Source of the DNA: a virus
Lineage: Duplodnaviria; Caudoviricetes
DNA length: 64,000 bases
IMG/VR virus record: IMGVR_UViG_2882447294_000001
Span: 587-64,586 of that record
Reading direction: 5' to 3' (one strand)
In this document: positions 45,783 through 62,586 of the stretch, piece by piece
How the letters are laid out: the number at the start of each line of letters is the position of its first letter
Numbering within the stretch: position 1 is the first letter of the stretch
Notes under the pieces: generated by a model
Told to the model about the DNA's origin: nothing
What the model saw: the letters and a program-made list of their open reading frames with translations, nothing else
The model's database searches: none
Made by a program: the position numbers and the translations under genes

Positions 45783-45793
45783 AGGAGGCCGAC

Positions 45794-45961: not shown

Positions 45962-47583
45962 AGATAGCCATTACCGCCTTCAAGGGTGAAATTCCGAAAG
46001 TTGATCCTCGCCTACTGCCGGATAGCAACGCCCAGGCAGCACGGAACGTCGATCTTGACCGTGGCACGGTCAAGTCGCTGCCGAATGTTTCGACGACGGA
46101 TACGGTGCCCGATGTGGCAAACCCGACCACGCTCTATCGCTATCCGAATGGCAACGATGGAGAGGGATTCTGGTTCGTATGGGGAATGGATAAGCACGTC
46201 CACATCGTTCGGTCCCCGCTGGCTAACGACGAGTGGGAGCGTGTCTACTGGACGGGTGACGGATTTCCCAAGATGGCGGGGATCGGCCAGGCGACAGCAG
46301 GCTCTCCGCCGTACCCCGGGAACTATTACAGGCTGGGCATCCCCGAGCCTAATGGGGCGCCGACCCTGTCCCAGCCCGACGATCGCGATGCCAGTGAAGA
46401 GATCCCCGACACCGCGCTCGAGACCACCTATGCGGTGACGCTGGTCAGCGGATTCGGGGAAGAAGGCCCGCCGACGGTATCGGGCACAACGATCCTGCGC
46501 TGGGACATGGTTGACGATGCTCCCGCGGGGGGTGGCGTGGTGGTGACTCTGCCCGGCATCCCGAGCGGCGCGCAGAATATCGTGACCAAGCGTCTCTATC
46601 GTGTGGAATCGGGCGGGGTGTTTCAGTATGTCGCCGACGTTGATGCTTCAACAGCCACATACCGGGACGATATTTTCAGCGAGCAGTTGGGCATTGATCT
46701 GCCGTCGACAGAATGGCAGGGGCCAGACGACCGGATGATAGGGCTCACGGCATTGCCGAATGGCATCCTGGCTGGTTACTTCGGCAACACGCTGTGCTTC
46801 AGTGAAGCATACCGGCCCCATGCCTGGCCGGTTGGCTATCAACTCGCCATGCAGCACGACATCGTAGCGATCGCCTCAACATCCGTTGGTCTCGTCGTCC
46901 TGACAGAGGGAAAACCGGTGCTGGTGACTGGGTCAAGCCCCGAGGCCATGGCGCAAGGAGAGTTGGATGTAAACCAGCCCTGCGTGGCGGCACGTTCGGT
47001 CGTGGACATGGGGGCATATGCACTCTATGCCTCGCCTGATGGGCTGGTTGCTGCCACCGGTCAGGACGCCCAGGTCGTGACCGCCAATGTGATGACGAAG
47101 GATCAATGGCAGGTATTGAAGCCCGAAACTATCCATGCGTACCGCTACGATGGGAAGTACCTGGCTTTCTATGACGGCGGATGTTTTGTATTCACCCCCG
47201 GCGAGGGTGTCGAGTTTCACGACATCCAAGCTAGTGGCGGGTACTACGACATTACCGACGATACTCTCTATCTGATCCAGGACGACGATATCGTCGCATG
47301 GCGGCAGGGCTCGGCGTTGCCATATCGGTGGCGATCAAAAGTGTTCGAGGTACCGCCCGGCGGTGCGGGCTTCACTTGCGCCAAAGTGATCGCTCGCGAG
47401 TATCCGATCACGATTCGTCTGTTCGCCGATGGCGCGACGATGTTGGAAACTGATGTCGACGGCCCGGGGATGTTTCGTCTGCCGTCAGGCTATGCGTTGA
47501 GCCGCGACTGGGAAATCGAGATCGCCGGCACCGCGGAGGTCAACAGCGTACAAATCGCGACGAGCCCCTCGGAACTAACGTAA
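45958..47583 (+). CDS. Tail nozzle / DNA stabilisation protein
   Basis: 'F.GEIP..DPRLLP..AQ.A.N', 'LCFSE.Y.PHAWP', 'YASPDGLV'; beta-propeller-like. Confidence 0.75.
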   Translation: MKIAITAFKGEIPKVDPRLLPDSNAQAARNVDLDRGTVKSLPNVSTTDTVPDVANPTTLYRYPNGNDGEGFWFVWGMDKHVHIVRSPLANDEWERVYWTGDGFPKMAGIGQATAGSPPYPGNYYRLGIPEPNGAPTLSQPDDRDASEEIPDTALETTYAVTLVSGFGEEGPPTVSGTTILRWDMVDDAPAGGGVVVTLPGIPSGAQNIVTKRLYRVESGGVFQYVADVDASTATYRDDIFSEQLGIDLPSTEWQGPDDRMIGLTALPNGILAGYFGNTLCFSEAYRPHAWPVGYQLAMQHDIVAIASTSVGLVVLTEGKPVLVTGSSPEAMAQGELDVNQPCVAARSVVDMGAYALYASPDGLVAATGQDAQVVTANVMTKDQWQVLKPETIHAYRYDGKYLAFYDGGCFVFTPGEGVEFHDIQASGGYYDITDDTLYLIQDDDIVAWRQGSALPYRWRSKVFEVPPGGAGFTCAKVIAREYPITIRLFADGATMLETDVDGPGMFRLPSGYALSRDWEIEIAGTAEVNSVQIATSPSELT

Positions 47584-47612
47584 AAACCTATTTGGCTCAC
47601 CGTGAGGTGCCC

Positions 47613-50600
47613 ATGCCTACCAAGCGTCGACGCGCGCTACCCACGGTATCGGCCAAAGCCGATCCGAACACTCGCCAGCTACTCGATGCCCTCAAGGAGA
47701 TCGTCGAGACGGGCGAGGGTGTCCGGGGAGACCCTCGCAATCGAAAAGTGACGTTCGGCGATCTGCTGGACAGCGGGATCGCTTCGCTCATTGGAACCAG
47801 AATCGGGTCTGGAATTCGCCCGGGAGATGGCATCCGCAATCCAATTCCCAATATGTCCGTGCCGCCTAAACCCGAGGGATTTGCCGCCATCGGAGGTTTC
47901 TACGGCATGGTCAATCTGTCGTGGACGGTACCGGAAACGCTCTACGGGAATCATGCGTTCACCCGCGTCTATCGCAGCGAAGAAGATAACTTCGCCAATG
48001 CCGAGGTAATCGGTCAGGAGTCCGGTGCATTCTATTCCGACTTCGTTCGCGACGATGCACTTGACCCCGATGATCCGACCAAACTGAAAGGCTATTACTA
48101 CTGGATCACGTGGGTTTCGACATCGGGCGTCGAGGGACCGCCCAACGATCCGTCTGGCACCTATGCGGCACCGCTGATCGATATCGACTACTTGCTGGAG
48201 ATCCTGAACGGGCAGCTATCCGAGTCGCAGCTCAACCAGGACCTTCTCGCCAAGATCGATAAAATCGTCGAGATTGACGAGGTCCGCGATCAGTTAGCAA
48301 CCGTCCGTGACAACCTGCTTTCCGAGGCCAATCGGCTGGATGGTCGTATCAATGAGATCGACAACCATCTCACCGAGCAGAAGGAAGCGCTCGACAAGGA
48401 TATCGACACGGTTCGTGGCGACCTGGCATCCGAGGCCGAACGGCTGGATGGCAGGGCTGATGAGCTAGACCAGCGCCTGCAAGGTGTGAAAACGGCTTTG
48501 GAGTCTGCCGACGATGACCTGCTGTCCCGCCTGCTCGAAGCCAAGCAGGCGATCGTCGATGCAGCGACGGCCAGCCAGGACGGTGACAACTTCCTTGCCG
48601 AGCGCATCAGTGGGCTGGTGAATGTCACCGATGACCATGCCCTCTACATCGGCCAGCTCCAGCGTGTATCGGCCGAGCGTGATGCTCTGGAGGCCGTTCA
48701 CTTCGATGCGCTTCATGCCGAGACCGCCAATCGCCAAGCCTCTATTCGTACGCAAGAGACGGTTCGGATCACTGCCGAGGAAGCGCTGGCCAGCCGCGCC
48801 GATGCCATCGAGGCATCTGTTGATGACAACCGCGCCGCGATCGTCGAGGAGCAGACGGCCCGCAGCGATGCTGTATCGTCGCTGGCATCACGCGTCGGTG
48901 AGCTGTCCGCCAAGCTGGATGCCGCGCCAACATTCGGTAGTGGCTTCGAGGCTGGTGCGGATTTCAGCCAGTGGGTGGTGGCCGACGGCAACACCCTCGA
49001 GGCCGATGACTCCGATCCCTTTTCTGGCCTGCAATCTGCCCTAGCGACATCATCGGTCTCCGGTGCGAATGTCGGTAGCGCAATCTACGCGCCGGTGCCG
49101 TCCGGTGTGATGAATGCGTTCGCTGGCTACGAGATCGTACTCAAGATCGCAGCTAAGCAACCCGACACCGATGCCTCGTCGGAGGCGGCCATTGCCTACC
49201 GCGCCAACAACGGTAGCTCCGGCTGGCTGCGTTTCACTCTTGGTGTCGAATGGCAAACGTTCGAATTCCGCTATCAGGTACCGAGCGACGACGATCCCAG
49301 CGATCACCGCATTGCGGTCTGGGCCGATACGTCCGGCAATGGTGGTGGGGTGATCGTCGACGGCGTTTCTGCCCGCCGCGCTGACGCCAACATTGCTGAA
49401 ATCAGTGCTGCAATCCAAGCTGAACAGACGGCCCGTGCTAATGCGGACGAGGCTCTGGCCACCGACCTCGACACGATGCGCTCGCGCCTGGGTACTGCCG
49501 AGGCAGCACTGACCGAGGAGTCACAGGCCCGTGCGACAGCGGACGAGGCTCTCGCGCAGCGCACAACCAACATGGAGTCACACCAGGATGACACTGATGC
49601 GCGCCTGACCACCGAGGAAGAAACACGCTCAAGTCAGGTCGAATCGCTTACCCGACGAGCCAGCTCCCTGGAATCCCGTGTTAGTGACGCCGAGTCAAAC
49701 ATCACCGATGAACAGTCTGCCCGAGCCAATGCCGACGAAGCGCTGACAAAGCAGATCGATGCTGCCGGTAGCCGTATCGATGATGCCGAAGCGTCACTGG
49801 CGAGCGAGCAACAGACCCGTGCAACCGCCGATCAGGCGTTGACCGATGAATTATCCGCTGCCAATAGCCGGATTGGCGACGTCGAAGCCAGTGTCATCGA
49901 AGAACAGCAGACCCGCGCCTCTGCTGACGAAGCAGCCGCTGAACGTCAGGAGTCGTTGCGTGCCGAGCTAGATGATGCTCAAGCGCGTCTTATAGCCGAG
50001 GAGCGTGCGACTGTCGCCGCCAATGAGTTGGAGGCGGTGCAGTTCGAAGCCATCGAGGTTTCGAAGGGGGGCTCTCGTGCCGCTATCTCAGTCGAGCGCC
50101 AGGTTCGAGTCGCCGAGGATGAGTCGCTTGCCACCGATATCCGCGCAGTTCAAGCCGCCACCGCAGACAACGCCGCCGCCATCGTTGATGAGACTCGGGC
50201 TCGAACGGATGCGGACACCGCGCTAGCAAGTCGGGCTTCGACGTTGGAGGCGAAGACGGCTGAAAACGAAGCATCCATTACCGATGAGGCGAAAGCGCGT
50301 TCGGATGCTGATTCTGCGATGGCGAGTCGTGCCTCGGCATTGGAGGCTAAAACTGCGGACAACGAAGCGGCGATTGCTCAAGAGCGATCTGCTCGAACCG
50401 GTGCTGACTCTGCAATGGCCCGTGACATCTCCGGTTTGCAAACTCGCGTAGGGGATACCGAATCGGGTATTCAAGAGGAGCGCGAGACGCGTATTGCAGA
50501 AGGCGAAGCGTTGGCCTCACAGATCACCACCGTGCAGAACGATTTGGGTGGTCGACTGACATCCGTCCAGCAAACGATGGAGACCCACGGCAACGCCATC

Positions 50601-51464
50601 GACGGGCTGTCGGCCGAGTACATGCTTAAGCTCGATGTCGATGGCTACATCTCCGGCATCGGCGCCTATAACGATGGCGACTCCAGCATGCTGGTCTTCC
50701 GCTCAGACCTGATCGCGTTCGCGCCGCCCAAGGGAAAGGGCAATGCGAAGGTGTTTCCGCTCGTCTACGACAGCGGTGTCGGCGCGGTCGTGATCGACAC
50801 GGCGCTGATCAAGGACGGCTCGATTCAGTCCGGCCAGTTGGGCGCGGTTCAGAGCGGCAAGCTGTTCCTGCCCGACGGTACGCCAGTGACGACAGCAGCG
50901 GGACTGATTCGCGCCGAGGCGATCGCCGTCGATGACCTCAAAGTGCAATGGGCCAATATTCAGAATGCGTCTATCAAGACTGCCGATATCGAGAATGGCG
51001 CGATTACGTCGGCCAAGATCGGCACTGCAGCTGTAGACACTCTTAAACTTGCAAATCAAGCGGTTACCATACCTGCCTCTAATTATGTGGCTGCTTCAGT
51101 GGATATAACGGGAGATGACTGGACTACAGTCGTGTCTCTCACTGTGTCGTCAACAGGTGCGCCGACACAGGTGCTTGCATCATTTGGATATTATGCCGAT
51201 GGTGGTAAAGGTGAAAATTTTTTGTCATATAGAATTCGCCGTGGGAGCACGGTTATCAGATCCGGCGATTTTGACCAAGTAAGCTATGTTGATCTTGGTA
51301 GTTTCTGGTTTACGATTTATGCGCGAGGAGTGGCAACGCCTGCAGTGCTAGATAATCCTGAAGCAGGTAACAATACATACTACATAGACGTGCGACGCCT
51401 CTACGATCGTGGATCGGTAGAAGTATACGACAGATTTATATCAACAATGGAAACCAAACGATGA
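47613..51464 (+). CDS. Long tail fibre / host-specificity protein
   Basis: FN3-like N-terminus, E-x-x-AR-x-x-AD repeats, internal CBM-like insert, DUF1983-like region and 'I.NASI.TA.I' repeats. Confidence 0.85.
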   Translation: MPTKRRRALPTVSAKADPNTRQLLDALKEIVETGEGVRGDPRNRKVTFGDLLDSGIASLIGTRIGSGIRPGDGIRNPIPNMSVPPKPEGFAAIGGFYGMVNLSWTVPETLYGNHAFTRVYRSEEDNFANAEVIGQESGAFYSDFVRDDALDPDDPTKLKGYYYWITWVSTSGVEGPPNDPSGTYAAPLIDIDYLLEILNGQLSESQLNQDLLAKIDKIVEIDEVRDQLATVRDNLLSEANRLDGRINEIDNHLTEQKEALDKDIDTVRGDLASEAERLDGRADELDQRLQGVKTALESADDDLLSRLLEAKQAIVDAATASQDGDNFLAERISGLVNVTDDHALYIGQLQRVSAERDALEAVHFDALHAETANRQASIRTQETVRITAEEALASRADAIEASVDDNRAAIVEEQTARSDAVSSLASRVGELSAKLDAAPTFGSGFEAGADFSQWVVADGNTLEADDSDPFSGLQSALATSSVSGANVGSAIYAPVPSGVMNAFAGYEIVLKIAAKQPDTDASSEAAIAYRANNGSSGWLRFTLGVEWQTFEFRYQVPSDDDPSDHRIAVWADTSGNGGGVIVDGVSARRADANIAEISAAIQAEQTARANADEALATDLDTMRSRLGTAEAALTEESQARATADEALAQRTTNMESHQDDTDARLTTEEETRSSQVESLTRRASSLESRVSDAESNITDEQSARANADEALTKQIDAAGSRIDDAEASLASEQQTRATADQALTDELSAANSRIGDVEASVIEEQQTRASADEAAAERQESLRAELDDAQARLIAEERATVAANELEAVQFEAIEVSKGGSRAAISVERQVRVAEDESLATDIRAVQAATADNAAAIVDETRARTDADTALASRASTLEAKTAENEASITDEAKARSDADSAMASRASALEAKTADNEAAIAQERSARTGADSAMARDISGLQTRVGDTESGIQEERETRIAEGEALASQITTVQNDLGGRLTSVQQTMETHGNAIDGLSAEYMLKLDVDGYISGIGAYNDGDSSMLVFRSDLIAFAPPKGKGNAKVFPLVYDSGVGAVVIDTALIKDGSIQSGQLGAVQSGKLFLPDGTPVTTAAGLIRAEAIAVDDLKVQWANIQNASIKTADIENGAITSAKIGTAAVDTLKLANQAVTIPASNYVAASVDITGDDWTTVVSLTVSSTGAPTQVLASFGYYADGGKGENFLSYRIRRGSTVIRSGDFDQVSYVDLGSFWFTIYARGVATPAVLDNPEAGNNTYYIDVRRLYDRGSVEVYDRFISTMETKR

Positions 51465-51652
51465 ATAAAAGATACGCGATATTTGATGATGCGGGCGATA
51501 TTAAATCTATTTTTATTGGTTCTGATGAACTTGTTAAGTTTCAGGGGCTAAATCATATTGAGGTGGGCCCCGATGTATCTGATGCAACACACTATATAGA
51601 TTTAGAAAATATGCAGCCTTCCATCTTGGATGAGCCAAAGAAACGCCGTTGA
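51461..51652 (+). CDS. Small fibre-associated protein
   Basis: ATGA coupling; shares low GC with the fibre tip. Confidence 0.65.
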   Translation: MNKRYAIFDDAGDIKSIFIGSDELVKFQGLNHIEVGPDVSDATHYIDLENMQPSILDEPKKRR

Positions 51653-51654
51653 CC

Positions 51655-51711
51655 CGATCACCGACTCCGACGACTCCTGATACTATCTACACATCCGCCT
51701 ACCGTGAGGTA
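51655..51711 (+). promoter_or_regulatory. Putative late promoter 3 with GTGA hairpin
   Basis: CGATCA-N20-TACTAT then TACC GTGA GGTA over the RBS. Confidence 0.55.
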
Positions 51712-51716
51712 CGCCC

Positions 51717-52226
51717 ATGCAAGCCACATCCCGCTCACCGGAGCGACAATTCCTTCACCAGGTACTCGCTGGCAATGAGCCCGCGATGCGGTGCTGCGAG
51801 ATCCTGTTCAGCGTATCGCAGACCCTCGACGACATCGTCGACGGCGACCGCGAGGTAACCGCTGCCGCAGTCATCAAAAGCTACTGGGAAGCCATGATCG
51901 AGCTTCCCGGCAATCCCTTCTATCGCCAGCACGAGCCCTACCTGCGTCCGCTGCTGGCCCAAGCCCTACAGGACTGGACGGATAGCGTGGCGCTGGAACG
52001 ATCCCAGGACCGGCACGCGCTGACGTTGGCCTTCGTGCTGCGCGACCAGCTTAGCGGCTTCGTCGTGCAGTGCGCCGGCCTGGTTGCCGGTTACGACTGG
52101 ATGCGCCAGATCGGCCCCACGATTCGGCAGTACTTCCACGACGAACGGCTGGATGATTATCTGGCATCGCTCCAACCCGAGGATGGCGAAGTCGAGCCAG
52201 TACCGGAAGGGGAGTCAGCATCATGA
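51717..52226 (+). CDS. All-helical protein with DDxxD motif, isoprenoid-synthase/prenyltransferase-like
   Basis: 'QTLDDIVDGD', 'LPGNPFY'; first gene of the ejection-protein cluster. Confidence 0.6.
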   Translation: MQATSRSPERQFLHQVLAGNEPAMRCCEILFSVSQTLDDIVDGDREVTAAAVIKSYWEAMIELPGNPFYRQHEPYLRPLLAQALQDWTDSVALERSQDRHALTLAFVLRDQLSGFVVQCAGLVAGYDWMRQIGPTIRQYFHDERLDDYLASLQPEDGEVEPVPEGESAS

Positions 52227-52858
52227 GTGGTGGCGGTGGTGGAGACAACACGGTCAAGGACACACCGGAACAGCGCTATCTCGCCCAGGTCGCGGCCGAG
52301 AAGTGGAACTACGCCCAGCAGGAACTGGCACCCCTCGAGGATGCGTACATGCAGGACGTCAACCAGATGACGGGCGACGATCGCATGTCGTACATCCGGG
52401 GGCAGGCCAGCCAGGGCCAGATGCAAGCCACCTCGGATCTGCTCGGCCAGGGGTCATCCCAGCTCACCCAGGCCGGCATCGACCCGAGTAGTGGTCGGTA
52501 TGGCGCGGCCATGTCCGGGCTGGCGCTGGGCGCCGCGCAGTCTGGTGGCGACACCATGGCCAGGGGGCAATTCTCCCAGGAAAACGAGCAGATCACCGGC
52601 CTGCAAAACATCATTGCCATGGGGCAGGGCGAATCCACCCAATCCCAGGCCGGTCTTTCTGGTGTCGCCAGCCAGGCGGCGGCGGATGCGCGTTCCAGTG
52701 CGATGGACAGCTATAACCGCAACTCGGCGAACCTGCAGTTGCTCGGCACCGCCGGCGGTCTTGGCGCGAGCTACGCGATGGGTCAGGGATCAGGTCTGGC
52801 ATTGGGTGGTACCGCCAATCCTGATTACGTCCCGGGACAAGGGTTGCAACTCTACTGA
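52223..52858 (+). CDS. Internal virion (ejection) protein with MSGGGGG N-terminus
   Basis: G/A/Q/S-rich; position typical of podoviral DNA-transfer proteins. Confidence 0.75.
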   Translation: MSGGGGGDNTVKDTPEQRYLAQVAAEKWNYAQQELAPLEDAYMQDVNQMTGDDRMSYIRGQASQGQMQATSDLLGQGSSQLTQAGIDPSSGRYGAAMSGLALGAAQSGGDTMARGQFSQENEQITGLQNIIAMGQGESTQSQAGLSGVASQAAADARSSAMDSYNRNSANLQLLGTAGGLGASYAMGQGSGLALGGTANPDYVPGQGLQLY

Positions 52859-52866
52859 GGTGAATC

Positions 52867-53343
52867 ATGGCGTATAGCAACACGCTGGGCTTGACGCTGC
52901 CGACCGTGACGTCATCCGCGCTACAGACCGTCGATCCCGAGCAAGCATTCCGGGGCGATCAGGGCGCCTCAACACTGCTAGGTCAGCTCTCGCGAGCCCA
53001 GTGGGAAGACTGGAAAACCCGATACTCTCCGTACATCCAGACGCTTGCCGATGCGGCACAGAATCCAACGGCGGCCGCCGATGCCGCGGCGATGGCATCG
53101 AACTCGATGACAACCGCCTTCGACAACAGCCAGCAAGGCCTGGCCATGCAACGGCAGGGCATGGGCGTTCAACAGACTGCAGCCCAGCAGGCAGCGGATA
53201 CGCGGCGCCAGGCATTGAACAAAGCGGCGAGCTCGGTCTCGGCCGGCAATCAGGCGCGCATCTCGGCTGTCGATCGCCAGCAAGCCATCCTTGGCGGCGG
53301 GCTCGGCCTCTCCAACATCCCTGACCAAGTGATGAACCAGTAA
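52867..53343 (+). CDS. Internal virion protein
   Basis: A/Q-rich; GAGGTG RBS. Confidence 0.7.
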   Translation: MAYSNTLGLTLPTVTSSALQTVDPEQAFRGDQGASTLLGQLSRAQWEDWKTRYSPYIQTLADAAQNPTAAADAAAMASNSMTTAFDNSQQGLAMQRQGMGVQQTAAQQAADTRRQALNKAASSVSAGNQARISAVDRQQAILGGGLGLSNIPDQVMNQ

Positions 53344-53372
53344 CTCTTCTCCGACTCACCGGGAGGTGACTC

Positions 53373-53633
53373 ATGGCATACGGACTACTCGGCCTCCGCA
53401 ATCAGATGGAAGGCGAAGCGCTGCAAGGCCTCGGCGATCTTGCCGGTCAGCAGCGCCAGAACAAAGCGCTCGAAGACCAGATGGATCAGGCCGATCGCCA
53501 GCAGAAGATGCAGGCCGTCGGCACCGGTGCCGGGCTGGGCATGATGGCTGGTATGCAGGCCGGCAGCGTGGGCGGCCCGATGGGGGCGGCCATTGGTGCC
53601 GGTGTGGGCTTCCTAGCCAGCGAACTGTTCTGA
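53373..53633 (+). CDS. Glycine-zipper internal virion protein
   Basis: 'GTGAGLG..GGPMGAAIGAGVG'. Confidence 0.75.
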   Translation: MAYGLLGLRNQMEGEALQGLGDLAGQQRQNKALEDQMDQADRQQKMQAVGTGAGLGMMAGMQAGSVGGPMGAAIGAGVGFLASELF

Positions 53634-53643
53634 GGAGACCGTC

Positions 53644-54882
53644 ATGGCAGGATTGGATACCCGCGGCTTGGCAAGTGGGCTGGCGCAAGGTCTCGGGCTC
53701 GGCATGAAACTGCAGAACCAGGAGCGACAGGCGCAGTATCAGAACGCCCGCATGCAGCAGTACGAGCGTGGCCTGGACATGCGAGAGCAACAGTACAACG
53801 ACCAGCGTGAGCAGCAGCAAAAGGCACGCCAGCTCGAGCAGGATAAGCTCTTGGCACAGAGCGGCTACGCGCGACTCGCTGCCGGTCAGGATCTGGACGA
53901 TGAACAGCTCGAAGCATTCAAGCGCAATCCATGGATGGCACCTTGGCATGTGGCTAGTGATGGCGTTGGACAGGCAATCGATCAGGCGCAGCGGGTCATC
54001 GATCCCAAAGATCCGGCCGATCTCAACGACCCTGAGTCACTAGAAGCACTGAACGCCATGTTCGGGCCACGCATTAATCGTGGCCACGGAACGAACAAGC
54101 GCATCCGTGCCGCCGTCCCCGGACGGAAACCCGGCACGTTGGCATTCGATCTCGACGTCGAGGGAGAAGACGGTAGCCGCTATACGGCGCCGATGACGCG
54201 CAATCGCGGTAAGGCCGGCGACGACGATGAGGTCATGCAGACTGATGTCGGCGATATCGTCAACCAGGTGGCCGGTTATAAGGCGCTACGCCAAGTACTG
54301 TCATCGCCGGAAGCACGCGAGAAGGCATTGGCCTATGGTCGCCAACTCGGGTTTGTGCCGCAGGCGGCCGACACCTGGGAGACAGTACAGGGACCGGGGG
54401 GCAGCTTGCTGCAACGCAATACTCGCACGGGCGAGATGAAGTCCATTGTTGGGCGCGAGCCACGCAGCGGTGGCGGCTATGGCTATGCCCCCACATCTTC
54501 GATGAAAGAAGCGCAATGGCTGGTCGCCAACGGCATTGCACCCAATATCAGTGAAGCCTACAAGATGGCCCGTGCCCGGGCAGGTTTGGATGGCGGCCAG
54601 CAATTGGAACTCAAGCAGCTCGACTATCTGGGCGATCAGATCAGCGACATCGATAGCCAGGTAAAAGCCTATCAGGACAACTACCAGGAACCCCCACAGG
54701 ATCTACTGGCGCAACGCCAGCGATTGATGCAGCAGCGCGAGGCGATCGCCGGGCGCATCTGGGGAGGCGAAGCAACGCCCACCGGCAGGCATGTCGAACA
54801 ACCTCAAGCGCAATCACCGCAGCGCCAGCAGACGGGCGACGACTTCGACCCTGATGCATTCCTCAACGACCTCGGAATTTAG
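53644..54882 (+). CDS. Internal virion (ejection) protein
   Basis: 'GLASGLAQGLGLG' then Q-rich coiled coil; precedes the largest ejection gene. Confidence 0.75.
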   Translation: MAGLDTRGLASGLAQGLGLGMKLQNQERQAQYQNARMQQYERGLDMREQQYNDQREQQQKARQLEQDKLLAQSGYARLAAGQDLDDEQLEAFKRNPWMAPWHVASDGVGQAIDQAQRVIDPKDPADLNDPESLEALNAMFGPRINRGHGTNKRIRAAVPGRKPGTLAFDLDVEGEDGSRYTAPMTRNRGKAGDDDEVMQTDVGDIVNQVAGYKALRQVLSSPEAREKALAYGRQLGFVPQAADTWETVQGPGGSLLQRNTRTGEMKSIVGREPRSGGGYGYAPTSSMKEAQWLVANGIAPNISEAYKMARARAGLDGGQQLELKQLDYLGDQISDIDSQVKAYQDNYQEPPQDLLAQRQRLMQQREAIAGRIWGGEATPTGRHVEQPQAQSPQRQQTGDDFDPDAFLNDLGI

Positions 54883-54891
54883 GAGACGCCC

Positions 54892-57800
54892 GTGGCTGGC
54901 AAGTGGCAACAAGTCGTGCAGAGCGAGCGCTGGCAGGCACTCGACCCCGAGCAGCGCCAGGCCGTGCGAGGTGCGTTTTTTGATCGCCAGATCCGACCCC
55001 AGACGCCGGGCGATAAGCTCGAGGCCGTGCAAAGCGCTTTCTTTACCCGCACCGAGCCGGATGTCTTCGGCAAGAGTGATGAGGAAGGTGGTGGCGTCGG
55101 CGCCATGGATTACGTCAAGGAGCTTGGCGCCGGGCTAGAAGAGGGTACCGGTGCCGTCCTGCAGGGCGCCGGCGATCTTCTCGAGCAGGGTGGCAAATGG
55201 GTCGATCGTGGGCTGCGCGCTATCGGGCTCGGCGATGCGGTCGATGTTGGTGACCGGGCGCTGGGCGGTCGCAGCCCATCCGACGCCGTGCGCGGCGCCG
55301 GCGAGTGGTTCGACGAGGGCGGCGATACTCTTCGCGCCCGTCAATCCGAGGCCGCGACACAGGCACGTGAGGACAGCACGCCGACCGGCGATATCACCAA
55401 GCCTTCGACGTGGAGCATGGGCGAGGACCCGAGCCTCGCCGGTTATGGGCTCCAGGTCTCCAACCTGATCGGCCAGTTCGCACCGCAGGCCGCTGCACTG
55501 CTGGCGCCCGGCGGGCAGGCGCGCGCTGTCGGCATGGCCAGTGTTGGTGGGCTGCAGGCGGGAGGAGCCGCCGGCCAGGATGCCGAGCAGTACGTCATGC
55601 AGCAGAGTGACGAGGATCTGGCGAAGAATTCCGGCATGTATCGGGATCTCATCGACCAGGGTGTTGAGCCGGCAGAGGCAAAGCGCCAAACCGCAGTTGC
55701 CGCGCGCGGTGCCGCATTCGCCGGGGCTGCACCAGTGGGCGGTGCCGGTGGGGCGCTGACCCATTACATTCTGGGCCCGTTCCAGCGGGCCATCGGTGGC
55801 GGCGTCGGGCGTCGTCTGGGTTACGGTCTGGCAGTGGATGCGCCGGCGGAAGGCGCTCAGGAAGTCGCCGAAACCGTGGCAGGGCGCACGGCTCAGAATG
55901 AAGCCACTCAGGGCAACCGGGATACCACGCAAGGCACCTTCGGCGATGCTGCCCTCGGTGCTATCGCTGGTGGTGGTCATGCTTCTCTCGGCGCGGCGAT
56001 GGGCGAGACGTTGCCGCAACGCAACCGGATGCCGACACCCGACGATCTGGTGCGGGAACGCACACCGGAGGACATTGCCGAGGCTGAACAGCAATACCAG
56101 CGGGATCGCGACGACGAAGCACGCCAGTGGTTCGAGCGGCGCCGCGCCGACGAGCAGTCCCAGCAGGCGGCCCGGGAGCAATTCGGCGAAGACGGCGCAG
56201 CGGTTTGGCAGAACGCCGACAACGACCTGCCAGTCAGGGTTCGCGGCATCGAGCCGGAGCCGGACGAGGAAGGCCGGCAGTATGCCCGCGTCGAAGTCGA
56301 TGGCCAGGAAGGCTTTGTGCCCTTGGATGAGCTTCGTGCCACGGAATCAGACCCGGTCGAAGAATCAGCGGCAGAGCCCAACCCGGACAATCCGCGCCAG
56401 CCCCAACTCGGCATCGACAACGACATTCGCGTCGCCGAGCGGATCGGCGCCGACGAGGACGCCATCCGTCTGCGTAATGCCAAGTCACTGTTCCTCCGCG
56501 CTATGGAGCAGGACGCCGCCGGCAACAACGATGCAGGATCGCGCCTACGCGAGCGCGGGCTGAACATCTATCGCGACATCTACGGCGACCCTGAATCACC
56601 GATGCCGGAACGGCCGGCGTCATTCCCGGTGCCGTACGAATATGTCGGTGATGTCGAGGCAGGCGGGCAGCTTCCGGTTCAGGCCGCTCGTCAGGATCGA
56701 GGAGAAACCTATTCCGGCGAGCCCGATCCGGCGCTTGCCACCCCGGCACCGCAACTACGCCAGGGGGACCAGGCCACCGGCGACCCTCTGATCTACGGCC
56801 AAGGGCCAACCGTCCGTCGCGGCAATGCCAATACCGGCCTGGATCAGCCGTTCGAAGGTGCGCGCACGACCGACACCAGCGCCGAGCAGCGCAGTGATTA
56901 CGATCCAACTAAGCCTGTAGATACGCCGCGCCACCGCCGACGCATGGAGACGAGTGGTCGACGTGCCACCGCATATCTAGCTGATAACACGCCGGTACCG
57001 GTACGTTACCGCGTCATGGATCTGGACGAGCTGACGCCCTCAAATGATCCTGATGGTGCAGTGAACCCACTGTTCCCAACAGAGCTTCAACCCCGGGACC
57101 GAACCGGGAAGAACAGCCAGGTTCAAGTGCGCAATATCGCGGCACGCCTCAACCCCGAGCGTCTTGGCGAATCCACAGATGCAGGCAGCGGATCGCCGAT
57201 CGTGGGTCCTGATGGTGTAGTTGAATCCGGCAACGGCCGAACGATGGCCATCGCACAGGCATATCGCAGCGATAGTCCGCAGGCCAGGCGCTATCGTGAC
57301 TTCGTGCGTCAGCGCGCTCAGGACTTTGGTATCGACCCAGGCGTCGTTGCCGGGATGCGAAATCCCGTTCTCGTTCGTGAGCGCACAGGTAGTATCGACC
57401 GTGCCGAATTCGCCCGCCGTGCCAACGAAGCCGATGTCGCTGGCATGACACCGCATGAATTGGCAATCTCCGATGCTGATCGGCTCAGCGTTGACGACTT
57501 GGCGCAGTGGGCACCGGATGAGAGTGGCGATCCGCTTGCAGCGTCGAACCGTGCCTTTGCGCGCCGCTTCGCCCAGCGCATGGGGAACAACGAGGCCAGC
57601 CGCTATCGTGGCCGGGATGGCCAGCCGACGCCGGAACTCGGCGAGCGCATGATGCGTGCCGTATTCGCCAAAGGCTATGCAGACGACCAAGGGCGTCCGT
57701 CGACCGATATGGTTGAAATGGTCGCCGAGCCCCAGGGGCGGATGCGCAATCTGACAGTGGCACTGCAATCAGCCGCGCCTGATTTTGCCATTGCACGAGA

Positions 57801-60800
57801 ATATGGCGGCGAGCAAGCCCAGGCCATGGCTGATACCGTTGTCGATGCGGTACGCATTGTGCGTCAGGCGCGCTCTTCCGGTATCTCTGTGCGTGAGCTG
57901 GTGAGCCAAAATGATGCGTTCAGCCAGCCCGTGCCACATGACACGGCCATGTTGGCATCCTTCATTGCCAACAATGCCCGTAGCCGATCTGGATTGAATG
58001 AAGCGCTGTCGCTGATTGCCGCAGCGACCCGTAACCGTGCTGAAAGCAGTCGAAACGGCTCGCTATTCGGCGATCAAGTCAGCAACCAGGACATTCTCGA
58101 TGCAGCAACGCGACAAGATTCATCTACGCCGGATCCAGAACGATCCAGCAGTGACGGAGCTTTTGCGGGAGGGGATCGCGCAGGCACAGGCGAGACGCCC
58201 CGAGGGTCGGAAACTGATCGTGCCCGAGCACCTGAACAAACCCAAGAAGTAGACGATCCGCTTCTCACGACGTACACCGAGCAGGATATCGCCGACCGCG
58301 AGCGAGCCAATGCAGCGTCAGCGCAAGATGAGCAGCTCCAGCGCCAGGCGGAGGCGCAGCGCGCTCAGGCCGACCGTGACGCCGAGGGCTTCACGCTCAC
58401 AGGCAGCGATCGGAGTGCGGATGTAGCTGCCGCTCAAGGTCAGGATGATCTGCTCGATACACGGTACGCCATGCGTTCGAACGCCGGAGACGTGGCGCCA
58501 CCGACCGCCGAACAGGTCCGAGCCGCTTTGGACAGCCTGGGCGAGCGTCTTGGCGACTTCACCGTCGTGGATTCGGCGGCGGAACTCCCGCTCCTGAATC
58601 AGCTAATGATGGCTCGCGATAACGTCGATCCCGCCGATGTCCGTGGCATCTATAGCGGAGACCGCCTGTACATCGTGGCGTCCAACAATGACAACATTCA
58701 GCAGGCCGTAGCGACGGCCGTTCACGAGGCCGTCGGGCACAAGGGGATTCGTGGCGTTCTCGGCGACGAGATCGAGCCGGTGATGCGCCAACTCTACAAG
58801 TCGCTGCCATTCGACAAGCGCGGCCGTGAAGCGCTCGACGAGGTGCTGGCCGACTATCCGTTCCTGGATCGCAATAACCCAGACGACCAGGTGACCATCG
58901 CCGAAGAAATGGTCGCGCACCTGCTCGAGAAAGGATACAGGCCCAAGGCGTGGCAGCGCGCCGTGGCCAAGATCCGGGAATTGCTGCGGAGATTCTTCCC
59001 CAGCGTGGCCTGGACCTACTCGGACGTACTGGCGCTGGGAGAGCGATCCCGCGAGTATCTGCGTTCGCAGGCCAGCACCTCGGAACCCGGCCAGGGGCCG
59101 AACCGATACTCGCGCCGCGGCTGGCGCTCGGACTTTCCCGACGCGGCACTGGCGCACCCGCTGCGCTGGGCAACGCAGCATCCGGACTACGAGGCGGCCA
59201 AGGCCGGCGACGACCAGGCAGCGCTACGGCTGGCGCGCGATGCCGTCACGCCGGAGTTCGTTGAGCAGGTGCGACAGATGATCCCCACCGGTTCGCAGCC
59301 TCGCATCGTGCCGGTGGTGGCGCAGGAAAGCGCGGGCAGGAATCGGATTCCGGCAATGGCTGCCGAAGTTCTCGCAGCACGGCTGGGCCTTGGTACCGTC
59401 GATAACCTGACCCAGCGCGAGCGCGTATCGCGTACCGGTGCCAATGCGATGGATCGCCTGCAACGCCAGCCTACGTTCGACGGCGACGTGGATGGCGGCG
59501 ACTTCCTCTTGCTCGATGACACCTTGACCCAGGGCGGCACGCTGGCGCAGTTGAAGACGCATATCGAAGACCAGGGCGGGCGGGTGCTTGGCGTGGCGGC
59601 ATTGACCGGCAAGCAGTACTCGCGCAAAATTGCTGTCGACCCATCAACTCTGGATCAAGTCCGTGACCGATTCGGTTCTGTCGAAAACCAGTGGCGTGCA
59701 GCCTTCGGCTATGGCTTCGAAGGACTCACCCAATCGGAAGCCCGAACGCTCCTTACATTCGAGCGCGGACGTCTATCGCCTGACGAACTCCGAAATCGAA
59801 TCCCTGCGCTCCGAGATGCAAGCCTCAATGGCGTGGGCGAGGGAGCAGCTGGCGATCGATCCGGACCTGAAGCACCTCTAAGCGATCCCTCCCGCTACAG
59901 TCTGCGCCCCCAGCGTCAGCCCGTCGCTGATCAATTCGATGACCTGAGCCCTGAGCAACAGGCCTTCATGGCTAAGTTCGGCCCCAGTACGCCGACGCGC
60001 CGCGTCATGGAGTGGTGGAAGGATCTCAGCCACCGCGCCGGCCTGCGTATCCGGCAGGGCATGATCGATCAGTATGCCGCGCTCAAGGAACTCGACGAGA
60101 AACGCTTCGGCAAGGATGGTGCACTCAAGCAAAGCATCACCAGCTCCAGTTGGGTGCTGGCGCGCATGTCGAATGCCGCCAATGGCGCGCTGCACGCCAT
60201 GCTGCACAACGGTCGCATCTACCTCGATCCCGATCAGAAGGTGATCGACATTCGGGACGACGACTCCAAAGGGCTCGGCGCCGTGCTGGGTCGACTGGGC
60301 AGCCCGGCGGAGATCGAGCGCTTCATGATGTGGATCGCCGCCAATCGCTCCAGCAAGCTCAAGGATGAGGGCCGCGAGTTCCTTTTCAGCGACGGCGAGA
60401 TTCGTGCCGGCATGCAGCTCGACCAAGGACGCATGGCGGATGGCGGCAGTCGGGCCGAGCGCTACGCCGAGGTCTTCGACGAGTTCCAGCAGTATCGCGA
60501 CGACGTGCTGGCCATTGCGGAACGGGCGGGCGTGATCCGACCCGATCAGCGCGCGATGTGGCGCGACGAATTCTACGTGCCGTTCTACCGGCTCAAGGAC
60601 GACAAGGACGTTAACGTCCAGCTCGGCACCAGCGGGCTATCTCGACAGCAGGCCTACAAGCGCCTGAAGGGCGGTACGCAGAACATCAACGACTTGCTTC
60701 AGAACACGATGATGAACTTCCATCATCTGCTCGATGCCAGCCTGAAAAACCAGGCAGCGCAGCAGGCGATCGACAATGCCGAAGCGATGGGTATGGCGCG

Positions 60801-62586
60801 CCGCGTGCCGGAGAGCGGGCGCGATACTTCGAAGTCGACCTTCGTCATGAAGGACGGCGCCAAATCCTTCTACGAAATCGACGATCCGCTCGTGTTCCAG
60901 GCGCTTTCCGCCCTGGCGCACCCGGGCATGAACAACACGATCATGAAGGTGATGCGTGGTTTCAAGCGCGTCTTCACCAATCTGACGACGACCACCCCGC
61001 AGTTCATGGTCGCCAACCTGATTCGCGACAGCCTGCAGGCCGTGGCGACCAACGAAGTCAGCATGAATGTGTTCAAGAACGTCTACGATGGCACCGGTAC
61101 GCTGCGAGACCAGCGCAAGCGCGCCCGGATGCTGGCTGCCGGTGGTAGCTTCAACTTCGGCCACCTGTATAACAACAACCCCGACGAGCTACGCGCGCAA
61201 CTGACGCGCAACCTTCGCGATGCCAAGATCGTCGGTGTTCCCGGATCCCGGCTCAAAGGCTTTGCCGCGCCGGCGGCGCTGATCCGTGCAGGTTGGGCGA
61301 AGTGGGGCGACGTCACCGACTTTGCCGAGAACCTGAACCGAGCGGCGATATACGACCAGAATCAGGACCAGGGCAAGCTCAAGGCGGCATTCGAGGCTCG
61401 GGACCTGATCGACTTCAGCGCACGCGGCGCATGGCCGGCGGTGCGCATCCTGACCGACATCGTGCCGTTCCTGAACGCTCGCATCCAGGGGCTGGACAAG
61501 ATCTACCGCAGCGGTGTGAAGCCGGGCGCCAATGTGCTGGCCGCAGCCTTCGGCAAAGGCGAGGCCGGTGTTTCCGATCGTCAGGCGGCTGCCCGATTCT
61601 GGTCCGTCGCCGGCGCGCTCACACTGGCCACGGTCGCGCTCTATCTCCACAACCGCGACGACGAGGACTACCAGAAGCTCGAGGAGTGGCAGAAGGACAC
61701 ATACTGGTTCTTCAAGGTCGGCGATCAGGAATTCTTCATTCCCAAACCGTTCGAGGTGGGTGCCATCGCCACCATGGCCGAGCGCGTCACCCAGCAGTTC
61801 GTCGACGATGAGGCGACGGGGGCGTTGTTCGGCCAGCGCATGATGCACATGCTCACCGACACGTTCAGCTTCTCGCCAGTGCCGCAGATGATGCAGCCCG
61901 CGCTGGATGTTTACGCCAACCGGGATTCGTTCACCAATCGGCCGATCGAGGGCATGGGCGATGAGCGGCTTTCGCCACAACTCCGCAAACGCGATGACAG
62001 CTCTCTGGCGGCGCGTGGCGCCAGTTGGGTGCTGAATCACTCCGTTGGCGCCATCGGCGATCCCGAACTCAACCCGATGGCGCTGTCGCCGCTACAGATC
62101 GACTACCTGATCCAGGGCTATCTCGGCCAGGTTGGGTCATGGGCGATTGGATCGGCCGATGTCGCATGGCGAGTTTTCGACGGCAAGGACGAGCCGGCCA
62201 AGCATTGGTACGAATACCAGCCGATCCGTCGCTTCTATCGAAACCTGGGCGACGAGCCGCGATATACCCGCTATGGCACGGTCTTTTATGACGGATTGCG
62301 CGAGGCCGAACGTGCCTATGCCGACGTCAAGGAGCTGGGTGAGCTCGGACGGATCGAAGAGGCTCGAGAGTTGGCCAAGAACAAGGCCGATGTCTTGCGC
62401 CTGCGCAAGCCTTTGATGAAGGCTCAGCGCGACCTGGGCAAGATTCGAGCCCAGATGGACGCCATTCGCCGCTCGGACCTGGACGGAGACCTGAAACGCC
62501 AGCGCCTCGATCGACTCACGGCCGTGCGGAACCGGATCCAGCAGGTATTGGGTGAGAAGATTCTGGAGCAGCGCGCGGCGGAGTGA
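54892..62586 (+). CDS. Large polyvalent ejection protein: ddrB-like ParB, zincin-like peptidase, PRTase and LPD38-like domains
   Basis: 'LQPRDR..VESGNGR', 'HEAVGH..AEEMVAH', 'LLLDDTLTQGGT', 'IPKPFEVG..RPI'. Confidence 0.85.
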   Translation: MAGKWQQVVQSERWQALDPEQRQAVRGAFFDRQIRPQTPGDKLEAVQSAFFTRTEPDVFGKSDEEGGGVGAMDYVKELGAGLEEGTGAVLQGAGDLLEQGGKWVDRGLRAIGLGDAVDVGDRALGGRSPSDAVRGAGEWFDEGGDTLRARQSEAATQAREDSTPTGDITKPSTWSMGEDPSLAGYGLQVSNLIGQFAPQAAALLAPGGQARAVGMASVGGLQAGGAAGQDAEQYVMQQSDEDLAKNSGMYRDLIDQGVEPAEAKRQTAVAARGAAFAGAAPVGGAGGALTHYILGPFQRAIGGGVGRRLGYGLAVDAPAEGAQEVAETVAGRTAQNEATQGNRDTTQGTFGDAALGAIAGGGHASLGAAMGETLPQRNRMPTPDDLVRERTPEDIAEAEQQYQRDRDDEARQWFERRRADEQSQQAAREQFGEDGAAVWQNADNDLPVRVRGIEPEPDEEGRQYARVEVDGQEGFVPLDELRATESDPVEESAAEPNPDNPRQPQLGIDNDIRVAERIGADEDAIRLRNAKSLFLRAMEQDAAGNNDAGSRLRERGLNIYRDIYGDPESPMPERPASFPVPYEYVGDVEAGGQLPVQAARQDRGETYSGEPDPALATPAPQLRQGDQATGDPLIYGQGPTVRRGNANTGLDQPFEGARTTDTSAEQRSDYDPTKPVDTPRHRRRMETSGRRATAYLADNTPVPVRYRVMDLDELTPSNDPDGAVNPLFPTELQPRDRTGKNSQVQVRNIAARLNPERLGESTDAGSGSPIVGPDGVVESGNGRTMAIAQAYRSDSPQARRYRDFVRQRAQDFGIDPGVVAGMRNPVLVRERTGSIDRAEFARRANEADVAGMTPHELAISDADRLSVDDLAQWAPDESGDPLAASNRAFARRFAQRMGNNEASRYRGRDGQPTPELGERMMRAVFAKGYADDQGRPSTDMVEMVAEPQGRMRNLTVALQSAAPDFAIAREYGGEQAQAMADTVVDAVRIVRQARSSGISVRELVSQNDAFSQPVPHDTAMLASFIANNARSRSGLNEALSLIAAATRNRAESSRNGSLFGDQVSNQDILDAATRQDSSTPDPERSSSDGAFAGGDRAGTGETPRGSETDRARAPEQTQEVDDPLLTTYTEQDIADRERANAASAQDEQLQRQAEAQRAQADRDAEGFTLTGSDRSADVAAAQGQDDLLDTRYAMRSNAGDVAPPTAEQVRAALDSLGERLGDFTVVDSAAELPLLNQLMMARDNVDPADVRGIYSGDRLYIVASNNDNIQQAVATAVHEAVGHKGIRGVLGDEIEPVMRQLYKSLPFDKRGREALDEVLADYPFLDRNNPDDQVTIAEEMVAHLLEKGYRPKAWQRAVAKIRELLRRFFPSVAWTYSDVLALGERSREYLRSQASTSEPGQGPNRYSRRGWRSDFPDAALAHPLRWATQHPDYEAAKAGDDQAALRLARDAVTPEFVEQVRQMIPTGSQPRIVPVVAQESAGRNRIPAMAAEVLAARLGLGTVDNLTQRERVSRTGANAMDRLQRQPTFDGDVDGGDFLLLDDTLTQGGTLAQLKTHIEDQGGRVLGVAALTGKQYSRKIAVDPSTLDQVRDRFGSVENQWRAAFGYGFEGLTQSEARTLLTFERGRLSPDELRNRIPALRDASLNGVGEGAAGDRSGPEAPLSDPSRYSLRPQRQPVADQFDDLSPEQQAFMAKFGPSTPTRRVMEWWKDLSHRAGLRIRQGMIDQYAALKELDEKRFGKDGALKQSITSSSWVLARMSNAANGALHAMLHNGRIYLDPDQKVIDIRDDDSKGLGAVLGRLGSPAEIERFMMWIAANRSSKLKDEGREFLFSDGEIRAGMQLDQGRMADGGSRAERYAEVFDEFQQYRDDVLAIAERAGVIRPDQRAMWRDEFYVPFYRLKDDKDVNVQLGTSGLSRQQAYKRLKGGTQNINDLLQNTMMNFHHLLDASLKNQAAQQAIDNAEAMGMARRVPESGRDTSKSTFVMKDGAKSFYEIDDPLVFQALSALAHPGMNNTIMKVMRGFKRVFTNLTTTTPQFMVANLIRDSLQAVATNEVSMNVFKNVYDGTGTLRDQRKRARMLAAGGSFNFGHLYNNNPDELRAQLTRNLRDAKIVGVPGSRLKGFAAPAALIRAGWAKWGDVTDFAENLNRAAIYDQNQDQGKLKAAFEARDLIDFSARGAWPAVRILTDIVPFLNARIQGLDKIYRSGVKPGANVLAAAFGKGEAGVSDRQAAARFWSVAGALTLATVALYLHNRDDEDYQKLEEWQKDTYWFFKVGDQEFFIPKPFEVGAIATMAERVTQQFVDDEATGALFGQRMMHMLTDTFSFSPVPQMMQPALDVYANRDSFTNRPIEGMGDERLSPQLRKRDDSSLAARGASWVLNHSVGAIGDPELNPMALSPLQIDYLIQGYLGQVGSWAIGSADVAWRVFDGKDEPAKHWYEYQPIRRFYRNLGDEPRYTRYGTVFYDGLREAERAYADVKELGELGRIEEARELAKNKADVLRLRKPLMKAQRDLGKIRAQMDAIRRSDLDGDLKRQRLDRLTAVRNRIQQVLGEKILEQRAAE
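58100..58252 (+). CDS. Nested +1-frame 50-aa ORF after the ParB-like domain
   Basis: AGGA RBS; GC3 by hand about 36/49 in this frame versus 18/51 in the host frame. Confidence 0.6.
   Translation: MQQRDKIHLRRIQNDPAVTELLREGIAQAQARRPEGRKLIVPEHLNKPKK
59711..59881 (+). CDS. Nested +1-frame 56-aa ORF at the end of the PRTase domain
   Basis: GC3 by hand about 43/55 versus 25/57 in the host frame; amphipathic helix 'LTNSEIESLRSEMQASMAWAREQL'; RBS weak. Confidence 0.6.
   Translation: MASKDSPNRKPERSLHSSADVYRLTNSEIESLRSEMQASMAWAREQLAIDPDLKHL

Follow-up and report, generated by a model that had tools for sequence, protein, structure and literature searches.

A conserved small phage protein with an isoprenoid-synthase-like predicted fold at the head of a putative ejection gene block

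Introduction

In podoviruses such as T7 and P22, a small gene stands behind the tail genes and directly 5' of the gene for the first internal or ejection protein. For T7, Hardies et al. 2016 (PMC4819975) describe the product of this gene, IVP-A (gp13), as essential to morphogenesis although it does not stay in the virion, and report an HHpred match to acetyltransferases; according to them, P22 and epsilon15 have standard homologues of IVP-A, and in phiRIO-1 an unrelated protein replaces it. The present analysis concerns the gene in the same position of a podovirus-like prophage, within a 64,000-nucleotide stretch of viral DNA (Duplodnaviria; Caudoviricetes; IMG/VR record IMGVR_UViG_2882447294_000001, positions 587 to 64,586) that is called the window throughout. 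This gene encodes a protein of 169 amino acids (aa), referred to as the target protein, and is followed by the gene of a 211-aa protein, referred to as the partner.

Pfam places T7 gp13 in PF11090 and P22 gp14 in PF11039, both of which we take to be members of an acetyltransferase clan. In the literature searched, no biochemical activity was found assigned to the small gene that precedes the ejection genes (gp13 in T7, gp14 in P22), and the role of this non-virion gene appears unsettled. ComQ and PalQ are enzymes resembling trans-isoprenyl diphosphate synthases that prenylate a Trp of ComX-type peptides, indicating that this fold can prenylate a peptide encoded by an adjacent gene. A literature search, which covered subscription journals thinly, returned no work on isoprenoid-synthase-like proteins of phage ejection modules, nor any on ejection proteins that carry a lipid.

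A sequence-only reading of the window had proposed that the target protein is a prenyltransferase, used in place of an acyltransferase for the lipid modification of a membrane-penetrating ejection protein. The observations on which it was built were partly confirmed by the analysis reported here, and its interpretation is partly supported. With a probability of about 0.8, the target is a conserved phage gene for a protein of about 150 residues with a miniaturised class-I isoprenoid-synthase fold, which retains an invariant DDxxDxD at the place of the first Asp-rich motif and an invariant Arg, has lost half of the fold and the second motif, fills the IVP-A slot, and is translationally coupled to, and works with, the product of the next gene.

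A large, mostly viral family with an invariant Asp motif

The target protein matches phrog_21390, a family of unknown function (E 1.9e-20). Close homologues number 117, none of them named, and were found in Salinicola, Halomonas, Pseudomonas, Marinobacter and Stutzerimonas as well as in metagenomes. An exhaustive search returned 917 representative clusters at E <= 0.001 (408 at E <= 1e-10 and 17 at E <= 1e-30), nearly all of them 140-180 residues long, and the nearest clusters in a protein language-model atlas were 82-100% viral. Among isolated phages, Achromobacter phage CF418P1 was the sole homologue-bearing record (34% identity by tblastn), and a megablast of positions 45000-64000 against isolated phages gave no match. 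The gene is single-copy within its 4.6-Mb bacterial assembly.

As the sequence-only reading had stated, the protein carries the string DDIVDGD (D38, D39, D42 and D44) and is helical, the AlphaFold2 model consisting of helices throughout. Conservation was read from three alignments of 27, 48 and 35 sequences. D38, D42, F68, R109 and G125 were invariant in all three, the two Asp residues thus being present in 27/27, 48/48 and 35/35 homologues; D39 was invariant in two alignments and at least 90% conserved in the third. At an overall identity of 25-30%, D39, D44, P64, N66 and W87 reached at least 90%, as did Y69, E94, R137 and Y148 in two of the three alignments. In distant members, S, G or A takes the place of D110. 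Across 82 loci (80 IMG/VR loci, CF418P1 and the window), the DD..D string was found in 81, and the exception, L053, is apparently frameshifted. A hand estimate gives a chance of about 5% for one DDxxD in 169 residues with about 7% Asp (about 165 x 0.07^3), so that a lone DDxxD is not rare by chance; the feature above chance is its invariance at such low overall identity.

No Pfam family matched the target protein at E <= 1, and a search of Protein Data Bank (PDB) sequences returned nothing significant.

A predicted fold close to isoprenoid synthases

An AlphaFold2 model based on the 27-sequence alignment (pLDDT 92.2, pTM 0.82) shows an all-helical protein of eight short helices. When it was compared with 48,161 chains by VIA-align, the top match was the small subunit of Staphylococcus aureus heptaprenyl diphosphate synthase (5h9d_D; Z 9.9, rmsd 3.2, 135 residues). 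Rows 1-36 were all prenyl diphosphate synthases or prenyltransferases by title, and isoprenoid enzymes made up 46 of the best 50 rows. In a second look, Z >= 8 was reached by 95 of 999 chains, and all 50 of the matches listed were isoprenoid enzymes. According to the program's own warning, a Z below about 13 may reflect a common arrangement in helical proteins; the values of 8-10 lie under this threshold, and homology is therefore not claimed. On the other hand, match lists drawn from about one superfamily are not what a generic helical bundle would return.

Foldseek against the PDB pointed to geranylgeranyl-, octaprenyl- and related diphosphate synthases (E 0.2-1, query TM 0.44-0.58), with three rows at TM below 0.2 departing from prenyl synthases and nothing at E <= 0.001. 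In BFVD, four uncharacterised Caudovirales proteins (E 7.5e-9 to 4.4e-6) were followed by a giant-virus trans-prenyltransferase at E 0.36. A language-model search placed PF00348, PF07307 and DUF2600 among the four nearest named clusters, with scores of 0.77 that serve as leads only. The isoprenoid-synthase fold suggested by the sequence-only reading is supported in so far as the model matches almost solely this superfamily, but not as membership in a sequence family, and the protein is half the size of such enzymes and has no second motif.

The aligned ranges allow the Asp motif to be placed approximately. Model residues 4-6 correspond to chain residue 39 of yeast geranylgeranyl diphosphate synthase (GGPPS) and to residues 23-25 of human GGPPS, and model residue 160 corresponds to chain residue 246-278 or so (6-160 to 25-246 for human GGPPS). 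With the motif numbering that we assume for GGPPS enzymes, D38-D42 would fall on the first Asp-rich motif and A105-D110 near the second. A position of D38-D42 near the first motif fits these offsets, which are taken from aligned ranges. The assignment of AFVLRD to the second-motif position was likewise derived from aligned ranges and from its likeness to the AFQxxDD context of host IspB; the LAFVLRD context of the target resembles GLAFQxxDD in that enzyme. The RRG that follows the first motif in host IspB, which supplies basic residues for the homoallylic diphosphate in such synthases, is not conserved in the family, and the target reads REVTAAAV after DDIVDGD.

A conserved partner gene with an unusual N-terminus

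The ATGA overlap with a gene starting MSGGGGG, which had been noted earlier, is present: the target stop codon TGA (52224-52226) overlaps the partner ATG at 52223, and the partner begins MSGGGGGDNT. An ORF (open reading frame) of at least 150 residues begins at most 40 nucleotides after the target stop in 78/82 loci, and the ATGA overlap recurs in 51/82. Over 81 loci, blastp found homologues of the four genes following the target (phrog_611, phrog_596, phrog_594 and phrog_601) in 56, 53, 49 and 48, respectively; the giant ORF behind them mostly extends beyond the fetched stretches. Upstream of the target, the phrog_511 tail or internal protein was found in 76 loci and the tail fibre in 68. The gene immediately 5' of the target, by contrast, falls into 28 unrelated clusters over 81 loci (tail-fibre pieces, DUF4376 proteins and others), and Pfam detected no acetyltransferase among 15 of these neighbours. 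Since the upstream neighbours are swapped and the downstream partner is kept, the target belongs with what follows it. In one distant relative (L057, 7477-7986), the target homologue begins within a gene for S-adenosylmethionine decarboxylase (PF02675, E 8.6e-15), a further small enzyme heading the block. In the window, G+C drops to 37-46% at about 51000-51650 (the 3' end of the tail-fibre gene and a 63-aa ORF at 51461-51652), compared with 60-69% in the block and flanks; together with the 28 unrelated upstream clusters, this stretch looks like an often-swapped host-range cassette ending exactly at the target.

The AlphaFold2 model of the partner is poor (pLDDT 64), with helices at 15-49, 52-83, 91-135 and 140-185 after a coil of 14 residues. 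It gave no Foldseek match, and a PDB sequence search with the partner was also blank. W28 is common among partners and not invariant. The N-terminus is more distinctive. Position 2 was S, G or C in 56 of 60 unique partner N-termini, compared with 16% of 281 other long ORFs of the same loci, and at least three Gly were found in residues 2-9 of 67% of the partners and 2.5% of the background; Cys in residues 2-8 occurred in 8/60 and 8/281, respectively. As related sequences are not independent, these counts are descriptive and not tests. Close relatives begin MSGGGG...DTPEQR, and the starts of distant partners include MGSLGGGG, MGTMGGS, MGCMSTE (the form of CF418P1, among others), MGCLSSP and MGMCGGGGG as well as MCCSGG, MCCDAP, MCCNAP, MCGNVCG and MSMGKSS.

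Residues around the motifs of the target vary along with this tail. Target homologues with His35 (three residues before DD) and LR[S/G/A] stand beside Cys-bearing partners in 9/12 loci, and those with Gln35 and LRD stand beside Cys-less partners in 64/65.

Similar N-termini are found in other phages. The homologous partners of VT2-Sakai and phiARM81mr start MGGSKGGG and MGKGGSNE, T7 gp14 starts MCWAAAIP, and P22 gp7 without its first 20 residues (according to the record's note) would start KGGKGG. Bcep22 gp70 has a hydrophobic 60-residue extension before GDAPAPDP, where its relatives begin MCCDAPDP.

Fusions of the target domain

In rare cases the domain is part of a longer protein. An S-adenosylmethionine (SAM) methyltransferase lies N-terminal to it in P0207 and P0272, whose clusters contain 2 and 3 members of independent origin. 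When longer forms were searched for, a single-sequence query yielded P0271, a truncated chimera, and a profile query yielded P0271 and P0272; neither query brought up a fusion to a glycosyltransferase. In P0252, a singleton present on 2 contigs, the target domain stands behind a GNAT-like N-terminal half: the nearest named atlas clusters of its first 150 residues were all viral GNAT acetyltransferases (0.90, 0.87 and 0.87). BLASTP and PDB sequence searches with this half, including comparisons with Bcep22 gp69, P22 gp14 and T7 gp13, were blank, and the GNAT likeness is therefore a lead and not a finding. Such fusions could reflect either several steps in the modification of one substrate or a recognition domain used in common.

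The same slot in related phages

The target agrees with the IVP-A layout of T7 and P22, being a small gene behind the tail genes and directly 5' of the first internal or ejection protein. It matches neither PF11090 nor PF11039, and as its model is all-helical, it does not share the acetyltransferase-like character of that group. The statement that the T7 and P22 slot holds GNAT-like proteins agrees with the acetyltransferase match of T7 gp13 and the IVP-A homologue in P22 (PMC4819975).

The structural module of the window is related to those of Bcep22, Stx phages and others (376 records by tblastn with phrog_511). In Bcep22, gp69 lies between the virion-associated gp68 and gp70 and is annotated as an acyl-CoA N-acyltransferase; it had no Pfam match at E <= 0.1 and gave weak GNAT rows in a PDB search (E 0.28 and 0.45), so that the acyltransferase label is the record's own. 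The Bcep22 gene order (locus L118, 11147-14907) is acyl-CoA N-acyltransferase, gp70, a PAPS-reductase-like protein, a virion-associated protein and the DarB-like giant (gp75), and enzyme genes are thus interleaved with those of internal virion proteins. In VT2-Sakai (L083, 14053-14454) and phiARM81mr (L082, 3630-3989), the position 5' of the phrog_611 homologue is held by phrog_610, a protein of about 124 aa and unknown function; as relatives of the target, these proteins were rejected at an hhalign probability below 1%. A phmmer search of the ORFs of the 82 loci with eight slot and fusion queries (T7 gp13, P22 gp14, Bcep22 gp69, two phrog_610 proteins and the N-terminal parts of P0252, P0207 and P0198) found nothing at E <= 0.01.

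The argument from the shared slot is thus sound, and a replaced occupant has a precedent. The further claim that the target stands in place of an acyltransferase is weakened by the rare protein P0252, in which a GNAT-like half (a lead) is fused to the target domain.

Setting of the gene in the late operon

The late operon occupies the + strand of the window (Table 1). Directly after the tail-fibre gene, the target heads a block that continues with five + strand genes (phrog_611, phrog_596, phrog_594, phrog_601 and that of a 2564-aa protein). It had been said to head an ejection cluster behind its own putative promoter. Its place at the head of a five-gene block is clear, and the ejection identity of the 211-aa neighbour rests on synteny. 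No sign of the promoter was seen: a consensus scan for sigma-70 sites at 51200-52400 found none on the + strand and one on the - strand (1.1 expected), although the scan is crude and a promoter is possible.

Table 1. Positions of the target gene, its motifs and the surrounding late genes in the window
Feature	Position	Strand	Remarks
Target gene	51717..52226	+	169-aa ORF with ATG start, from the ORF listing of the window; eight-helix protein, phrog_21390, predicted cut-down isoprenoid-synthase-like fold
Shine-Dalgarno-like GAGG	51706..51709	+	7 nucleotides 5' of the target ATG, from the sequence
DDIVDGD (D38 D39 D42 D44)	51828..51848	+	invariant Asp-rich motif where helix 2 (21-42) ends; codons GAC GAC ATC GTC GAC GGC GAC span exactly these positions
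AFVLRD (A105-D110)	52029..52046	+	R109 invariant; near the expected second Asp-rich motif, itself not Asp-rich; from conservation
Partner gene	52223..52858	+	211 aa, phrog_611; translationally coupled; weaker match to phrog_8003 'virion structural protein'
Partner N-terminal tail MSGGGGGDNTVKDT	52223..52264	+	unstructured in the model; candidate recognition or modification site
phrog_596 protein	52867..53343	+	158 aa; blastp homologues in 53/81 loci
Glycine-zipper protein	53373..53633	+	86 aa, phrog_594; PF13441 E 3.9e-5, PF25688 P22_gp7 E 0.0013
phrog_601 protein	53644..54882	+	412 aa; homologues in 48/81 loci
Polyvalent DarB-like internal protein	54892..62586	+	2564 aa, last in the block; Pfam and PHROG matches
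Small and large terminase	34878, 35416	+	late operon
Portal	37411	+	late operon
Major capsid protein	40937	+	late operon
Tail proteins	43888, 45958	+	late operon
Tail fibre	47592-51464	+	1290 aa; late operon, directly before the target block

Both Pfam matches of the 86-aa protein (PF13441 and the C-terminal part of P22_gp7) are sub-threshold against the curated cut-offs. The 211-aa partner shows a weak local match to the N-terminal part of gp7 and the 86-aa protein to its C-terminal part; judged by these sequence matches, gp7-like functions may be split across the two genes here. The 2564-aa protein contains a ddrB-ParB domain (PF18763, 698-831), an LPD38 domain (PF18857, 2257-2443), a weak phosphoribosyltransferase match (PF00156, 1522-1575) and a HEAVGH string. 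The homologue of this DarB-like giant in phage JC1 (gp69 of that phage) is reported to have been detected in virions by mass spectrometry (PMC9144972). Beyond the giant gene, a 300-aa ORF (63098-64000, - strand) has no PHROG match at E <= 1e-5.

Possible functions of the target protein

The fold, the invariant motif and the coupling to the partner invite a proposal on the activity. It is tentatively suggested, at clearly less than even odds, that a non-virion target protein attaches an isoprenoid or similar group to the N-terminal tail of the partner in a Mg-dependent reaction. The target would act as a non-virion maturation enzyme in which Mg2+ is bound by the Asp cluster, and the diphosphate of a host-made isoprenoid (or similar) donor by this cluster and R109 jointly. 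The flexible tail of the partner, with Ser, Gly or Cys as its first residue after Met removal, would enter the pocket and be alkylated, which would equip a protein bound for the host envelope with a hydrophobic anchor. We infer the binding of metal and diphosphate, the donor and the acceptor, the catalytic activity and non-virion state of the target, and the part played by the partner in ejection; prenylation of an ejection protein by the target is plausible. The presence of transferase-fold proteins in the same slot elsewhere (T7 IVP-A, Bcep22 gp69) counts for a transferase. The conservation pattern of the target, which resembles that of an active site, and the distinctive partner N-termini, with the hydrophobic extension of Bcep22 gp70, also speak for the proposal.

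Several results weigh against this proposal. The structural statistics are weak, with Z values of 8-10 in a grey zone and the Foldseek E and TM values given above, and the closest structure to the model is that of a non-catalytic subunit. The target is half the size of the known active enzymes of the fold, and we know of no active enzyme of the isoprenoid-synthase fold at about 150 residues. It has one DDxxD, and the second Asp-rich motif is missing, its position reading AFVLRD or (F/Y)xLR[S/G/A]. Sequence comparison gave little: PF00348 was matched by just 1/48 homologues (E 0.16), the NCBIfam model hexpp_archaea scored 12.3 bits against a cut-off of 400 over 21 residues of the motif region (target residues 26-46 paired with positions 69-89 of an archaeal hexaprenyl diphosphate synthase), and an hhalign comparison of 251 family members with 30 proteobacterial synthases had a probability of 2%, the local mode aligning the motif alone, to either Asp-rich motif of the synthases, and the global mode giving a meaningless alignment. 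The presumed acceptor residue varies among Ser, Gly and Cys, and the covariation of His/Gln35 and the LR segment with partner Cys may reflect one or two clades or evolutionary events. The rare fusions would suit an enzyme no better than a common recognition module. The view of the partner as an ejection protein rests on synteny and position; its hhalign probability was 11% against P22 gp7 (weak and local), with nothing against T7 gp14, and Pfam P22_gp7 was found in 0/35 partners. Moreover, a C-terminal Peptidase_S74 chaperone domain occurs in the CF418P1 partner (L001, 5844-7031) and in 2/35 partners. This domain is typical of self-cleaving fibres and spikes, which casts doubt on calling all members of the partner family ejection proteins.

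It is possible, though on balance doubtful, that the target is instead a non-catalytic escort or recognition module, whose helical bundle binds the tail or helices of the partner and delivers it to the procapsid. The acidic cluster would then recognise an exposed alpha-amino end or a cation and not a diphosphate, and the domain would serve for substrate recognition in the fusions. Such a role agrees with a nearest structure that is a non-catalytic subunit, with the half size and the absence of a second metal motif, with the strict adjacency and coupling to the partner, with the fusions to unrelated transferases (the SAM methyltransferase of P0207 and P0272 and, as a lead, the GNAT-like half of P0252), and with the description of IVP-A as a morphogenesis factor absent from virions (PMC4819975). 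However, an invariant DDxxDxD with Arg, Asn and Tyr retained in very divergent members is unusual for a pure chaperone and typical of a ligand site, and the place of the motif is the one at which enzymes of this fold bind Mg-diphosphate. The evidence from fold and motif, together with the late-operon position, would also suit a diphosphate-bearing ligand other than a protein-directed prenyl donor, the target for example binding or hydrolysing undecaprenyl diphosphate or farnesyl diphosphate at the membrane in assembly or lysis, or making a small terpenoid, with the neighbour not being a substrate. This is quite unlikely, as the target travels with its downstream partner while upstream genes are swapped, motif-adjacent residues covary with the partner N-terminus, and the block contains no further isoprenoid gene.

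Two other explanations concern the fold itself. The likeness may be a generic helical-bundle coincidence, with the Asp cluster binding, for example, Ca2+ or Mg2+ for stability. The grey-zone Z values, Foldseek E values of at least 0.2 and the hhalign probability of 2% would be expected in that case, but the match lists are nearly pure in one superfamily (46 of the best 50; 50/50 among the matches listed in the second look), the Asp motif lies where that superfamily has its own, and an independent language-model feature search leans the same way, making a coincidence improbable. Least probable of all, and very much so, is a small-subunit mimic that pairs with host IspA or IspB and changes or blocks isoprenoid chain synthesis. 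Small subunits of heptaprenyl and hexaprenyl diphosphate synthases (HepPPS and HexPPS) are indeed the best structural matches (5h9d Z 9.9, 9kp1 Z 7.8, 3aqb Z 6.7), and the host has two PF00348 genes elsewhere in its genome; yet the DDxxD of the target is invariant and, to our knowledge, these small subunits have no Asp-rich motif. Furthermore, the gene lies in a virion-assembly operon and is coupled to a structural gene, not placed among early host-takeover genes, and sequence similarity to PF07307 does not go beyond the 0.77 language-model lead.

Returning to the transfer of an isoprenoid group to the partner, a broader extension of it is unlikely but would connect the different occupants of the slot. 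The head genes of podovirus ejection operons would be a polyphyletic group of transferases (acetyltransferase-like gp13/gp14, the target family and perhaps others) sharing as their substrate the exposed N-terminus of the first ejection protein, with Gly, Ser or Cys in front after Met removal and a tail rich in Gly or Cys behind it. The target family would then contain the smallest active enzyme with a class-I isoprenoid fold and, for bacterial viruses, the first protein prenyltransferase, from which the ejection protein would receive a lipid anchor for its entry into the host envelope.

With the target, the slot has a second, unrelated fold that is normally found in enzymes working on a hydrophobic activated donor and whose metal motif is kept here, and this leads to a testable chemical hypothesis. 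As the family is large and unnamed, assigning its fold provides an annotation for many prophages, among them those of Halomonas, Salinicola, Pseudomonas and Marinobacter. If catalysis is real, the target would show a much-studied enzyme fold in minimal form; otherwise, it would be a clear example of an enzyme fold that has been taken over as an escort in virion assembly.

Comparison with known systems

With T7 gp13 and P22 gp14, the target shares its genomic slot, whereas fold and sequence are unrelated. phiRIO-1 gp39 and phrog_610 are other alternative occupants of the slot, the latter without similarity to the target. ComQ and PalQ are full-length enzymes with two motifs that act on the Trp of short secreted peptides, whereas the target is half that size, has one motif and stands beside a 211-aa helical protein; no sequence relation between them and the target was found.

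The HepPPS and HexPPS small subunits (5h9d chains C and D of S. aureus, 3aqb_A, HexA of Micrococcus luteus, and 9kp1_A of Bacillus subtilis) are, like the target, all-helical and about 140-190 residues long. The alignment with 5h9d is near one-to-one (model 7-151 to chain 29-180), the two proteins agreeing in fold and size, but the identity to the small subunits is 7% and there is no profile match (no PF07307 Pfam hit). These subunits also act with a catalytic large subunit encoded beside them, whereas the target has an invariant DDxxDxD and no PF00348 gene in its block; the two PF00348 genes of the host lie on other contigs than the target block.

The homodimeric trans-prenyl diphosphate synthases of PF00348 (GGPPS, farnesyl diphosphate synthase FPPS and octaprenyl diphosphate synthase OPPS) resemble the target over helices of about C/D to I, with human GGPPS (2q80_A) at Z 8.5 and yeast GGPPS (2e8v_B) at Z 9.6. 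They comprise 280-350 residues against about 150 in the target, which lacks the second DDxxD and the RRG and stays below the sequence thresholds. In both, however, a DDxxD motif is located at the end of the corresponding helix.

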